From positions 1,248,001 through 1,312,000 of the forward strand of contig CAXXLF010000002.1 in assembly GCA_963664015.2 (NCBI GenBank): a stretch of DNA of 64,000 nucleotides. Direction: 5' to 3'. Positions 1 through 4,346 of this stretch are shown here, piece by piece. The notes beneath the pieces are model-generated. The model made no database searches. It was given only the letters and a program-made list of their open reading frames with translations, and was not told the origin of the DNA. The translations under genes were made by a program, and so were the position numbers. The DNA comes from Candidatus Binatia bacterium (GTDB lineage Bacteria; Desulfobacterota; Binatia; UBA9968; CAXXLF01). Within the stretch, counting starts at the first letter, position 1. Every line of letters starts with the position of its first letter.

Positions 1-1248
1 ATGTCCCTCGTCTGCAAGAACGATAATTTTGTCGGACTCGTTCAGGACAGGGAATTCACTCTCGTCTGCGCTCTCCTGAAACTTCTGAACCATCGCCGTC
101 ACGATGTCAGAAGAGTCTGTCTGCAGGAGTTCCTTCAGGTCTCGAACGGACTCCGCATGGTGAATGGTCTCACTCTGGGTGTTCTGGAAGGTTGCCGTCA
201 GTTGGGTGTCGAGTTGAGTGCGGTCGGTGATGAAGACGAGTTTGTAATCTCGGAGTGCTGGGTCACGTCTAATCTTGAGAGTCAGGAACACCATGGTCAG
301 AGATTTACCCGAACCCTGCGTATGCCAGATAACACCGCTCTTACTCTTGCGGTCGGTTCCTGCCTTGATGCGTTCAATGGATTTATGGACTGCACGGAAC
401 TGCTGATACCGCGCAATCTTCTTCACTGTGCGTCCATCGACAGGTTCAAACACGGTGAAGTTCTGAATGAGATCGAGGAAGTTCGTTTTGTTGAACATTC
501 CTGCGATCAAGACGTCTTGAGACTCAGGGGTCTCTCCCACTTCATTAATCTTCAGAGGATACGGATCTTTCCATTCTAGAAAGTGCTCCATGCGTGACGT
601 GATAGTGCCTACACGCGCCTTATCGCGATGGGTGGAGACCATGAGTTGGTTGTAGTGAAAGAGTTTTTCTGCACCTTCATTATCTTGATGAGTTCTGCGG
701 TTTGCATACCGCATCAACTGATCAATCCCTGATTCCATGGGGTTGGTGATGTAGGGGGATTTGCACTCGATCACTGCAAGGGGAAGACCATTCACGAACA
801 GAATGATGTCGGGAATGATGTTCTGGTTAACCCCTGAGACCTTGAACTGGTTCGTGCAAAGGAACTCGTTGTTCTCAAGGTTATCGAAGTCGATGAACTT
901 GACGGTTTGTCCCCGATTGCCCTTGCCCACGTCCTGCATGACGGAGGTGTATTGCGTGAGGGTGTTCCAGACGGATTGGTTTGCTTCAATCAGGTTCGGA
1001 AACTGCGCTCTGGTGAACTCACTGATGACCCTTCGCAGGTTGTCTTCACTGATCCATGGGTTGATGCGTTGGATTGCTTTCTCAAGACGATGTTCGAGAA
1101 CCACGTCCTTGAAGGAACTGCGTTCATCTGAATCTTTAAGGGTTGGTTCCGATGGAGAGAGTTTAGAACCCTCGAGGTATGTCCATTCCAGTGACTGAAG
1201 TTGTTCCAGTGCGGGGAGTTCTACCTTGTCGAGTTCATCGGATGCCAT
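1..1248 (-). CDS. hsdR: Type I restriction endonuclease subunit R (5' part; runs off left edge)
   Basis: Not in the ORF track. Manual translation from ATG at 1248 gives MASDELDKVELPALEQL..., nuclease motif PDIILFVNGLPLAVIECK, Walker A HTQGSGKS and DEGH at bases 12-1; starts 1 nt after the hsdS stop. Confidence 0.95.
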   Translation of the reverse strand, partial: MASDELDKVELPALEQLQSLEWTYLEGSKLSPSEPTLKDSDERSSFKDVVLEHRLEKAIQRINPWISEDNLRRVISEFTRAQFPNLIEANQSVWNTLTQYTSVMQDVGKGNRGQTVKFIDFDNLENNEFLCTNQFKVSGVNQNIIPDIILFVNGLPLAVIECKSPYITNPMESGIDQLMRYANRRTHQDNEGAEKLFHYNQLMVSTHRDKARVGTITSRMEHFLEWKDPYPLKINEVGETPESQDVLIAGMFNKTNFLDLIQNFTVFEPVDGRTVKKIARYQQFRAVHKSIERIKAGTDRKSKSGVIWHTQGSGKSLTMVFLTLKIRRDPALRDYKLVFITDRTQLDTQLTATFQNTQSETIHHAESVRDLKELLQTDSSDIVTAMVQKFQESADESEFPVLNESDKIIVLADEGH

Positions 1249-1249
1249 C

Positions 1250-2497
1250 TCAGTTCACCGACACTCTGACTTTACCCGTCAGGAGATCCTGCATGAGGGA
1301 TTTTTTGAGAGATTGGGTTTGGTGGAGTTTTTGTTTTTTATCTGACAAACATTTATTTATGGGACTGATAATCCTGATAATCCCATCCTGTTCTATATCT
1401 GGGGGCACGGGGATCCTGATATCTTTTACGATTTGGGAATTAAGTTTTACCATGGTCTCTGAGGTGCCTTGTGCAAGTCTAGAGATTTGAGTCCTTAACG
1501 CTGAACTCAATAACATTTGCAAAATGAAATCTACGTTCGCCGATTTTTTGAATGTTAAGCGCATCATTAAGTCGGGGTAGATGCACCCACGTCCAAAATC
1601 CCGAAATATTCCTACTAATCCAACAAGTTCTCTAGTATTTGACCTGCTCATTAAAAAATCACCGTCTTTTAATAAAAAATCTTTATTTCTCTCAGATGGT
1701 TCAATCGATTTTAGTTGGGTTGGCAAAAAACCGTCTTTTCTTAAACATCCTAGACCCAGACTTAAGTCCCCATTTTCAGTTTCCTTTGGACTAAATCCGT
1801 TTTTCGGGTTTTTAGATAAAAGTTCTGATAATTTTTTAACCTCCCAACTCTTCGGAATTCTCCCCAACTCACTGTCTTTGAACTCTGTGTGACCAATCCC
1901 TTTGGTCAACAACTCGTTCATCGTTCCTTTTTTCAGATCTTGGAGTTTGTCGATTTGCGATTGGGTTTTCTCAATTACCTCATCAACAGAGGTGAGAATG
2001 GATGCGATTTTCTTCTGTTCTGGGAGGGGTGGTGTAGGTATCGGGATTGATTTCAAATCCCCCAAAACCACTCTACGGATCGCTGAACCAGATTTCCGAT
2101 TTTCAAGTTCTCCAATAAAAATGGGAGAAGAAAGGAATTGTTCTAGAAAATGAGGAAGAAGTTTTGAGTTTTCGGTTCGAATAATTGCAATTGAAGAAAG
2201 TACAACAATATTATCAGATTGTTGAAAAACAAGGGTTTTGCCGATTGTACCGTCTTTTGAAAACAGCACATCGCCGATTTTTGGATTGCACGAGTTTGCA
2301 GTTAGATTTGTGAATTCTTCTTCAGAAATTGATCTGCAACTGGAGATATCGATGGTACTATGTCTCATGTTTTCAACAGTCGCAATCGGACACCCATTTT
2401 CCACTGTCGGGGGAGAATAGTGAGAACCATCAGTTATTTTTTTTGATAGGTCGGATAAAGAGTTTACACCCCAACCCTCTGGAACCTGCTCACTCAT
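1250..2497 (-). CDS. hsdS: Type I RM specificity subunit S
   Basis: Two TRDs (PEGW.. and PKSW..), conserved spacer [17 protein letters not shown]-terminal [19 protein letters not shown] at 2497 overlaps the hsdM stop. Confidence 0.95.
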
Positions 2498-4211
2498 ACC
2501 CAAGTTCCTTCAGATAACCCCGCATCACCTCTTCTGACTGTTTCACCTCTGCATCCAGTTCGTGCAGGGAGACACGATACTTGTCCCACCATCTCTCGAA
2601 CTGACTGATGACGGACTGCTCATCCGTGTTAAGGAACTCTCGTATCTGTTCCTTGGTCTCAATCTCGGGTTTGAACTCGTAGTATTCGTTGTCCCTTCGA
2701 ACGAACACACCGCTGACATCCATTCCCTGCAGAGTTTCCTGAATATACTCGTCCTCAATCTCACTGACGGGTATTCCACCTCGAAGGATCGCACGGACAT
2801 CAAACTGCTCTGGTGGGGGTGATGTGTCCGCGTATCTGCGGATGTTCAGGTTGTAGTCATTCTCACGAATCTCATCGATCGAGACCACCTTCGCATACCG
2901 CTTCTCATCCTCGTATCCGTCAAAGGTTTCGAGGATCCGCTGAATGTCTGACTTACGGAGTTTGGTCTGACTCTTACTTTCTTCGAATCCTAATTCACCG
3001 TTGATGAAGAAGACCTTCCCTTTGCGTTCAGGAGACTTCCGTTTGTTGATAATCAGGAGTGCTGCAGGAATGCCTGTGCCGTAGAACAATCCCGAGGGTA
3101 GTCCGATGACACCCTCGAGAAGATCGTCCTCCAGAATCCCCTTACGAATCTCCTTCTCACTGGAACCGCGGAACAGAACACCGTGAGGAACGACAACACC
3201 CATCATTCCCTCTGCGTTCAGTGACGCAATCATGTGCTGAATGAATGCGAGATCCCCCGAATCCTTGGGAGGGGTGCCATAGGGAAACCGTCCATAGGGA
3301 TCGTTATCTGCCTGTTCCTTACCCCATTTTGCGAGGGAGAACGGTGGGTTTGCGATCACTCGGTCAAAGACCTGCAACGCACCTCCTGAGATGTGCTGAG
3401 GATCTCCCAGAGTGTCACCCTTACGGATATCTGCATTGAACACTCCATGCAGGAACATGTTCATCTTGCAGATTGCCCATGTGTTCAGATTCATCTTCTG
3501 ACCGTAGAGGGACAAGTTGGACGGGTTCTCTCCGTGATCGATCAGGTAGTTTCGTGTGGTGACCAACATGCCGCCGGAACCAACCGTGGGATCGTAGATC
3601 TTCATACCCGCACGAGGTTTGATGAGTGACACCAGAAGTTTCACCACCTCAGTCGGGGTATAGAACTCTCCACCCTTCTTACCTGCAGAGTCTGCGAACT
3701 GCTTGATGAGATATTCGTATGCACCGCCCATCAGGTCTGCATCTGCAAAGTCCTCATTCCTCAATCGATGCCGAGAGAAGTGAGACAGGAGATCCTGCAG
3801 TTTCTTGTCTGAGAGTTTATTTTTGATATTGAAGTCGATGGAGACCAACACGCCCTCGAGACTGGGGTTGTGCTCCTCGATCGTCTCGGTTGCCTTGTTC
3901 AGTTCCGCACCGATGTCGTGCTTGAGATCCTTGAGTTGATCCCATCGTGCACGTTCAGGGACAAAAAACGTCTTGTCGTACTCGTCCTCATCGGATGCGA
4001 GTTGCTCTGCTTGTTGCTGGTTCTTGCCCGTGGAGAGGTAGTGCTGAATGACCTTCTCTTGCTCTTCCTCAAACGAGTCCGAGAGACGCTTCAGGAACAT
4101 CATCCCGAAGATGTAGTCCTTGAACTCAGACGCATCCATGTTGCCGCGTAGGATATCTGCGGTTTCCCAGAGGAAGGACTCAAGTTGCGAAAGAGTGAGT
4201 TTTTCCGTCAT
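2490..4211 (-). CDS. hsdM: Type I RM N6-adenine methyltransferase subunit M
   Basis: GEFYTP, motif [11 protein letters not shown], motif [21 protein letters not shown]. Confidence 0.96.
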
Positions 4212-4346
4212 TTTTACCCCTATTCGGTTGCAGACTCCTCAGTGAACGGTATCCGAGCAATCCCAGGGTGTCAACGAACTCGTGGGACCGGTAAGAAATT
4301 CCCTTAATACTGGCGAAGAACGATTGGCACACGCTAAAGATTTTTC

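Follow-up and report, generated by a model that had tools for sequence, protein, structure and literature searches.

The chlorella virus enzyme CviJI recognizes RGCY (R = A or G; Y = C or T), and the passage on its relaxed activity, CviJI*, in a chlorovirus review (PMC7019647) lists PuGCPy, PyGCPy and PuGCPu as cleaved, leaving only PyGCPu; the same review notes site-specific nicking enzymes with sites of 3 nucleotides (nt). A frequent target can also be rendered harmless by its orientation: in a section of PMC3874151, phage T7 is described as having all 36 of its EcoP15 sites in one orientation, and as type III enzymes need two inversely oriented sites, no cleavage occurs. On the RNA side, MqsR cuts at GCU with minor cleavage at GCC, and GCU-less transcripts such as GhoT escape it, as stated in a part of PMC4905990; engineered ACA-less mRNAs and MazF form a comparable pair. 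Here we analyse a type I restriction-modification (RM) operon, hsdM-hsdS-hsdR-ygjP, at the left end of a 64,000-nt stretch of a Candidatus Binatia genome (the window; C2:1248001-1312000 of the source genome), whose sense strand almost lacks the trinucleotide GCY over its whole length.

The locus shares something with each of these systems. Its gene order and domains are those of type IC-like RM systems such as EcoR124I and EcoprrI, which often carry a YgjP-like gene, and only the nucleotide composition of one clade sets it apart from other operons of this kind. Like DNA avoiding CviJI, it has hardly any RGCY (2 sites versus 59), and some related contigs lack RGCY alone (5 versus 136); unlike in simple CviJI-type avoidance, the half-sites of the operon are lost on one strand only. 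As in T7, an asymmetric site is kept at normal level in a single orientation, in relatives whatever the gene direction (L219, L212, L226 and a second zone of the source genome), but this site has 3 nt instead of 6, and a need for inverted pairs is here presumed. As with GhoT, the sense strand is nearly GCU-free in all frames; unlike in the MqsR/GhoT pair, no such toxin was found in the genome, GCA is enriched, the bias of the relatives follows the DNA strand, and there are relatives in which only the palindrome is missing.

One strand of the operon is nearly free of GCY

All four genes are co-oriented on the minus strand, so that a plus-strand RGC is a GCY on their sense strand. Over window positions 1-4255, RGC occurs on the plus strand only at 1404, 1558, 1722 and 2265, all within hsdS, and the next one is at 4256. 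The original prediction, made by eye, had placed RGC-free stretches at 1-1248 and 2490-4211, had named exactly these four exceptions in hsdS, had estimated about 30 opposite-strand GCY in hsdM (30 are counted), and had put the end of the pattern near 4256, next to GCY-rich neighbours; all of this is borne out. Following the depletion leftward, as it had proposed, we find that it continues over the co-oriented rest of hsdR and ygjP to C2:1245509, giving a zone of 6,747 nt (C2:1245509-1252255) with its edges 47 nt 5′ of the hsdM start and 50 nt 3′ of the ygjP stop.

The zone contains 7 sense-strand GCY, where about 236 are predicted from genome trinucleotide frequencies and the average over 300 dinucleotide-preserving shuffles is 110 (minimum 85); the antisense strand has 117, against a shuffle mean of 135.5. 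With GCT 4 and GCC 3 in 6,652 nt of sense strand, the cleavage motif is near-missing from the putative mRNA. The palindrome RGCY is reduced to 2 sites (59.4 in the same number of dinucleotide shuffles, minimum 44), and the asymmetric site is almost wholly of one orientation, with YGCY 5 versus RGCR 115; GCA is enriched 1.83-fold. Against a genome background of 35.8 sense GCY per kb (standard deviation 8.0; 2,651 long open reading frames, ORFs), the operon genes are extreme outliers, and for a target of 3 nt, near-absence over 6.7 kb is far beyond usual avoidance. The source genome has 64,260 RGCY in 3.51 Mb, and the operon's neighbours at window 4256-9500 hold 115 RGCY, 55 YGCY, 97 RGCR and 31 YGCR.

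The original prediction had argued that alanine codon bias alone could not explain the pattern, and codon shuffles support it, since all three reading frames are depleted. For hsdM, sense and antisense GCY number 0 and 30, for hsdR (2,997 nt; no plus-strand RGC in its part of the window) 2 and 64, and hsdS has 4 on the sense strand where resampling of genome codons yields about 30. Frames 2 and 3 of hsdM have none, versus 20.6 (minimum 11) in 1000 within-gene synonymous codon shuffles that keep the gene's own codon usage, itself already without GCY alanine codons; for the 2 of hsdR, the synonymous-shuffle total has a minimum of 25. Across codon borders, none of the 69 CYN codons of hsdM is preceded by a third-position G, though G is the third base of 177 of 574 codons (31%); within codons, alanine is written only as GCA (20) and GCG (8). 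A footprint of strand-specific mutation, such as C-to-T at GCY, in a burst or at a steady rate and with no selection on the motif, would leave the frames open, because by the genetic code GCY-to-GTY makes no stop codons, and alanine does stand at 4.9% in HsdM compared with 5.4-9.0% in 7 homologues that are not strongly depleted. However, GTY is not enriched on the empty strand, alanine is retained with GCA and GCG as its codons, and the third base before CYN codons is spread over A (22), T (24) and C (23). With the divergence data of the next section added, we regard such a footprint as very improbable.

The junction at 4200-4300 is not a misassembly: a single contig of run X2 spans window 1-5400 and a single contig of run X4, from another study, spans 1328-5400, both with 0 differences, and either run may be the source of the assembly itself. 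The chance that assembly, base-calling or a chimeric join produced the bias is close to nil, given identical sequence in contigs of runs from two studies, the same bias in independent genomes and in metagenome contigs of many projects, and intact reading frames.

The depletion is inherited with the operon and maintained by selection

Related operon loci were confirmed at 547 places in other genomes, and 84 loci were compared. The closest two share the bias over the same four genes: in L003 (HsdM 90% identical), sense and antisense GCY are 1 and 24 in hsdM and 9 and 64 in hsdR, and in L005 (82% identical) they are 4 and 22 in hsdM and 6 and 47 in hsdR. In a tree of 75 HsdM sequences, all depleted or partly depleted genes form one clade (the window's own operon, L003, L005, L019, L004, L020, L041 and L008), and hsdM genes outside it have about equal GCY on both strands. 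The clade contains more than one state. The window's operon, L003 and L005 have one GCY-free strand, and L004 lacks only RGCY (3 versus 45 expected in the operon; 116 versus 125 in the host flank), which runs counter to the original prediction that strand asymmetry argues against an RGCY restriction cause; L019 and L020 look like relaxed descendants. The hsdS genes of the window and L003 are only 35% identical, so the specificity gene has been exchanged and is still depleted.

On the genomes compared, the bias is no host trait. The 40 relatives of the source genome have no close HsdM homologue (best 50% identity), and 11 hsdM loci among them are normal. The complete genome with L003 (2.0 Mb) has no clear non-repeat GCY outlier apart from the operon. 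Four hsdM relatives were found in viral contigs, none of them depleted.

Over the divergence within the clade, GCY has been kept out. The hsdM genes of the window and L005 are 47% identical at third codon positions. When codons at the columns that actually differ were replaced by draws from the usage of non-depleted homologues, 2000 runs gave on average 18.6 GCY in L003 (minimum 9) versus 1 observed, and 31.2 in L005 (minimum 19) versus 4 observed. With synonymous sites near saturation, these simulations show that the operon is under ongoing purifying selection against GCY, in line with the selection against a GCY target that had been proposed; mutation without such selection, from which about 19 and about 31 new GCY would be expected over this near-saturated synonymous divergence, is largely refuted. 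A further relative is represented in the marine metatranscriptome run X16 by short contigs that match parts of hsdR, hsdS and hsdM at 90-95% identity. Its 40 listed differences, out of 119, create 0 sense GCY, where random changes would create 3.2 (P(0) = 0.01). As X16 is an RNA library, these operon-like contigs may be transcripts, for which they are candidates only. One X16 contig diverges right at the hsdM start (4213), and no X16 contig lies over window 4321-5400.

The genome holding L003 offers some further observations. It has a second type I RM operon (L187; G041:C1:1701162-1707161) that is poor in GCY on both strands in hsdM (12 sense, 20 antisense) and hsdS (4 and 9) and has an hsdR with normal GCY (45 and 49). 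A GCY-free stretch at G041:C1:1653300-1657900 (L184 13300-17900) is a tandem array of short units, about 4.6 kb long, that lacks any long ORF or Rfam match and is nearly GCY-free on one strand because its repeat unit is. Another stretch of 1.2 kb (G041:C1:1829836-1831004; L193 9836-11004), probably repeat-like, with no ORF of at least 40 amino acids (aa) and no Rfam match, has no plus-strand RGC and 11-17 GCY per 250 nt in most windows; being repeats or repeat-like, neither stretch was counted as an independent case. Genome-wide, RGCY is relatively rarer there (28,527, with 42,380, 42,232 and 36,124 for the half-site classes) than in the source genome (64,260, with 61,727, 59,365 and 43,046).

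A second GCY-free zone and a family of marine elements

Just downstream of glmS, the source genome has a second zone (Table 1), with 1 GCY on the minus strand. It contains a minus-strand ORF for a 324-aa protein, the C-terminal remnant of a large serine recombinase and two plus-strand ORFs, so that the empty minus strand is antisense to both of the latter. An 81-nt repeat in two copies (83% identical), each 5′ of a small plus-strand ORF and the first holding a promoter-like CTGACT-17-TATAAT, looks like a repeated cassette promoter. For the 324-aa protein, 161 homologues were found, all without annotation. Its predicted structure (pLDDT 74.6) gave no Foldseek match at E up to 0.001, and the best VIA-align hits, at Z 3.4 for sigma region-4-like helices and Z 3.3 for a DarT chain, are too weak to use. 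Protein atlas matches are unnamed clusters only, some of them viral, and viral contigs gave 1 trivial match. The zone is part of a low-GC island directly downstream of glmS that contains an imperfect inverted duplication, with arms 74-90% complementary, each holding part of the 324-aa gene and then a MORN/Sel1 lipoprotein gene; the match to the recombinase remnant of this island overlaps the 3′ end of glmS.

Relatives of the 324-aa gene were found in 80 metagenome loci (L202-L281), and GCY was counted in the 77 genes of at least 540 nt. Each strand has at most one GCY in 17 of them, the sense strand alone does in 32 (16 of these with at least five on the antisense strand), 17 are low (2-5 GCY) and 11 have more than 5; a gene empty on the antisense strand only does not occur among the 77. 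The empty strand is uniform over whole contigs. In L219 (5,958 nt), the plus strand has 0 GCY and 65 RGC, and eight minus-strand ORFs carry 29 sense and 0 antisense GCY; homologous proteins are encoded at other loci for six of the eight, which are therefore real genes. Since the empty strand of L219 spans both gene orientations, the bias is a property of the DNA strand. Gene direction is ignored in the second zone, L212, L204 and L226 as well, and YGCY stands against RGCR at 0 versus 65 in L219 and 0 versus 38 in L212.

Among 35 contigs of at least 3 kb (3-12 kb; some of those in which RGCY is present include host flanks), avoidance takes nested forms. Only the palindromic RGCY is missing from 13 (5 observed versus 136 expected), one strand is GCY-free in five, and both strands are in another five, in which only YGCR is left (L214, for instance, has RGCY 0, YGCY 1, RGCR 1 and YGCR 50); RGCY is present in nine, and three belong to no class. 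Altogether, 26 of the 35 have at most two RGCY. The fullest avoided set, sparing only YGCR, equals the published cleavage set of relaxed CviJI as the review gives it.

Small integrative elements and phage satellites that carry defence cargo include virion-encapsidated integrative elements and PICI-like satellites. The contigs described here resemble them in gene content: they are 3-12 kb long, and those annotated have a small resolvase, in many cases together with a large serine recombinase, as well as small ORFs in a conserved cluster and defence genes that vary between contigs. This cargo includes a type I RM system (L216), a NERD nuclease (L249) and a restriction-endonuclease-like gene (L247). 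Unlike in satellites, neither capsid-related or packaging genes nor a helper phage came to light. Three elements encode a homologue of the T4-type clamp-loader small subunit (phrog_225, E down to 3e-20), which hints at dependence on a phage.

The operon clade is tied to these elements through its relatives. In L005, the region upstream of hsdM includes fragments that match sequences of the element contigs L219, L247 and L248 at 66-69% identity and the 592-aa large serine recombinase of L249 at 48%, and an element-type small resolvase stands beside the operon in L007 and L004 (68% and 50% identity to that of L226). On these similarities, the operon DNA most likely carries the mark of long residence on small marine mobile elements.

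Probable escape from a GC-centred nuclease at the level of DNA

Our data are best explained, with a probability that we put at roughly 0.6, by a DNA-level escape from an RGCY/GCY-type nuclease, in which the remaining half-sites all have one orientation. The operon would have been recoded during its residence on marine elements shaped by avoidance of the sites of a GC-centred DNA nuclease that cuts very frequently. The canonical target would be the palindrome RGCY, which has GCY on both strands at once, and the relaxed target would be any GC that reads as GCY on one strand or both. With GCY nearly gone from one strand and normal on the other, the remaining half-sites point the same way. Damage would require GCY on both strands, in the form of a double-strand cut at the palindrome, a pair of inverted half-sites or nearby opposed nicks, and if harm needs both strands, a single empty strand suffices for escape, as for T7 and EcoP15. 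Starting from a pattern that is conserved under selection, takes nested forms, ignores gene orientation in the relatives and is linked to elements, we infer the nuclease, its need for both strands and its maker, which may be the hosts, helper phages or the elements.

The original prediction had placed the selection on the transcript instead: a co-resident GCY-specific endoribonuclease would spare the mRNA of the operon, so that the restriction system is still made as other mRNAs are degraded. Such an enzyme would be MqsR-like and could act as a toxin of a toxin-antitoxin pair, as a phage enzyme or as a collateral RNase. The empty strand is indeed the sense strand of all four genes, in all frames, the zone comprises the operon with a short leader and trailer, and an Mrr-helicase gene on the other strand, described below, is partly depleted on its own sense strand; the cleavage preference of MqsR and the escape of GhoT given at the outset fit, and a bioRxiv abstract has MqsR/MqsA acting with restriction systems against phage. 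Yet the empty strand crosses both gene orientations in the related elements and in the second zone, which does not support a property of the mRNA, and the loss of palindromic RGCY alone in relatives (the 13 contigs above and the L004 operon) is inexplicable by RNA. Nor did the source genome yield the co-resident RNase: E. coli MqsR had no phmmer match among 49,531 six-frame ORFs, the MqsR profile PF15723 had none either (a weak negative, as the E. coli control was unmatched too), and RelE/ParE and HepT searches found nothing. Across the five RNase-toxin families searched, the only genes detected were one for HicA, interrupted by an in-frame TGA, and one for MazF, preceded by an antitoxin-like ORF (C1:1196961-1197119; C2:816139-816429), and this sole mazEF locus has normal GCY. 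GCA, a second MqsR site according to a review (PMC5408214), is enriched in the zone, and the bias travels with the operon across phyla, hsdM being normal in the relatives of the host. As the four genes are co-oriented, an RNA-level cause could still apply to this operon alone; overall, we judge mRNA immunity improbable. Of the original prediction, the observation and the selection against GCY stand, and the reading as RNA-level immunity is probably wrong.

Selection on one strand could also arise during a single-strand stage, such as rolling-circle replication, transfer or service as a permanently lagging template, if an agent acting on single-stranded DNA (a nuclease, a deaminase or a base-modifying toxin) recognized GCY. 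In keeping with this, the empty strand is uniform per contig and always the sense strand of the 324-aa gene, with the 16 of 77 genes that combine at most one sense with at least five antisense GCY and 0 of the reverse. An ORF at L243:3755-4276 weakly matches REP_ORF2-G2P (E 4.8e-5; 24.0 bits, below the 27.8-bit cut-off) and has a homologue of 57% identity in L262, with weaker likeness to sequences of L266 and L278; ORFs at the equivalent position in L216 and L247, for which homologues were found in L207, L270, L278, L279, L213 and L240, do not match the L243 ORF. A single-strand stage does not predict, however, that 13 contigs and the L004 operon lose only the palindrome and keep half-sites on both strands, nor that five contigs are empty on both strands. 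The Rep match is below threshold, and the empty strand has no deamination-like excess of GTY or ACY (GTT 1.16, GTC 0.94, ACC 1.13, ACT 1.83). We therefore hold this explanation to be unlikely. DarT1 was considered as a GCY-specific agent of this kind and dropped, as its paper reports no consensus motif.

Several results weigh against escape from a DNA nuclease too. Neither the elements nor any host yielded a nuclease or methylase of RGCY/GCY specificity, and a C5 cytosine methyltransferase (PF00145) was not found in the source genome; matches to PF00145 elsewhere comprise one in the L003 genome (a fragment), one in the L004 genome and nine in the L019 genome. The 324-aa protein has no fold match, its best Z of 3.4 being the one given above, and a CviJI-like gene did not come to light. 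One empty strand would give no protection from an enzyme that simply makes double-strand cuts at GCY half-sites. In the window's operon, the empty strand coincides with the sense strand of four co-oriented genes, zone edges so close to the first start codon and the last stop (47 and 50 nt away) fit a transcript as well as a cassette, and the partial sense depletion of the Mrr-helicase gene (16 versus 37) fits an RNA or a DNA cause. This operon has no adjoining element gene, so that the link to elements comes through three relatives, and the integrase and primase genes next to it are RGCY-rich, so that protection does not extend to the whole of the present island. To our knowledge, CviJI is known from an algal virus and not from marine bacteria or their phages, and we know of no type III-like enzyme with a 3-nt GCY site. 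A methylase of RGCB specificity, which we took to be a candidate cause, was rejected because RGCG is present on the sense strand (34 sites).

If escape from a DNA nuclease is the right reading, coding DNA can be cleared of a 3-nt target over kilobases and stay clear of it in the long term, and marine communities would hold a strong and widespread selective agent that nobody has so far identified. The one-orientation trick of T7 and EcoP15I would extend to a far shorter motif and to cargo defence genes, and the signature (RGCY missing, one GCY-free strand or only YGCR left) would serve to find an unannotated element family and to trace which defence genes have travelled on its members. The case is also a caution that a bias confined to the sense strand of an operon transcribed in one direction is no evidence for selection at the RNA level. 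More tentatively, and as a possibility that we would not favour over its negation, marine bacteria, phages or elements may deploy an ultra-frequent GC-centred nuclease or nickase with GCY as its half-site, the harm of which needs both strands, and a whole class of satellite-like elements with their defence cargo, this 6.7-kb operon among it, may have been recoded by synonymous choices in their thousands to one blank strand in response. Were the 324-aa protein this enzyme, the elements would be immune by sequence, with no methylase, and the DNA of helper phage and host could be destroyed on induction.

Genes of the operon and their surroundings

Judged by its predicted domains, the operon is a complete type I RM operon, protein-wise ordinary, with the domains expected of HsdM, HsdS and HsdR all present (Table 1). 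By eye, the hsdM leader has a TTGACA-17-TACCGT, with the first upstream GCY inside the spacer; the promoter scan called 0 sites at this leader and the terminator scan none after ygjP, which leaves the promoter read by eye weak. Rfam gave 0 matches in two loci of the source genome (40 kb) and in three stretches of the L003 genome (60 kb).

Table 1. Coordinates of the operon, its neighbours and the second zone. Positions with two dots are those of the window; C2 positions are those of the source genome contig, and L002 positions those of the locus around the second zone.
Feature	Position	Strand	Domains or remarks
hsdR, first 416 codons	1..1248	minus	Pfam HSDR_N, SWI2_SNF2, ResIII
hsdR, whole, 998 aa	C2:1246252-1249248	minus	Extends left of the window; also T1R_D3-like, T1RH-like_C
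ygjP, YgjP-like metallopeptidase gene	C2:1245560-1246255	minus	Left of the window, after hsdR in the same orientation
hsdS, 417 aa	1250..2503	minus	Two target-recognition domains; Pfam Methylase_S PF01420, 2 stretches, E 1.9e-29
hsdM, 573 aa	2490..4211	minus	N6_Mtase PF02384, E 1.4e-105; HsdM_N PF12161, E 9.3e-33
GCY-free leader 5′ of the hsdM start	4212..4255	minus	Bias stops at plus-strand RGC 4256
Bias-free island neighbours: 238-aa ORF, Prim-Pol/AAA_25 primase-helicase, 160-aa ORF, tyrosine integrase	4478..9409	plus	Pfam
Second GCY-free zone	C2:935626-938775		Just downstream of glmS
81-nt repeat, two copies	L002 11919-11999 and 12620-12700		Each 5′ of a small plus-strand ORF
Low-GC island downstream of glmS	C2:930750-938775 (L002 5750-13775)
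Arms of the inverted duplication	L002 6894-7653 and 10376-11037
Large-serine-recombinase match in the glmS island	C2:938820-938401		Overlaps the glmS 3′ end
Sel1-repeat genes amid foreign genes	C2:1224000-1245000 (L001)		Left of the window
Large-serine-recombinase remnant	C2:1229279-1229551 (L001)		Left of the window

Left of the operon, the region L001 holds several Sel1-repeat genes amid foreign genes. An ORF there (C2:1224608-1225897) with a strong difference between sense and antisense GCY was rejected as a further case, because it reads a Sel1-repeat gene backwards, and in Sel1 genes the repeats and the alanine content produce such an asymmetry. Queries with the 324-aa protein and with the Mrr-helicase protein found no match in the five genomes holding L003, L004, L005, L019 and L020. 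The Mrr-helicase gene itself, an Mrr_cat_2-helicase-HA gene of 816 aa, lies in L001 on the strand opposite to the operon and is partly depleted of GCY on its own sense strand (16 versus 37). PADLOC matches it to type IIG and type I restriction endonuclease-methyltransferase models, and these RM-type matches are all that the 12 island ORFs scanned gave; the same region also retains a remnant of a large serine recombinase.

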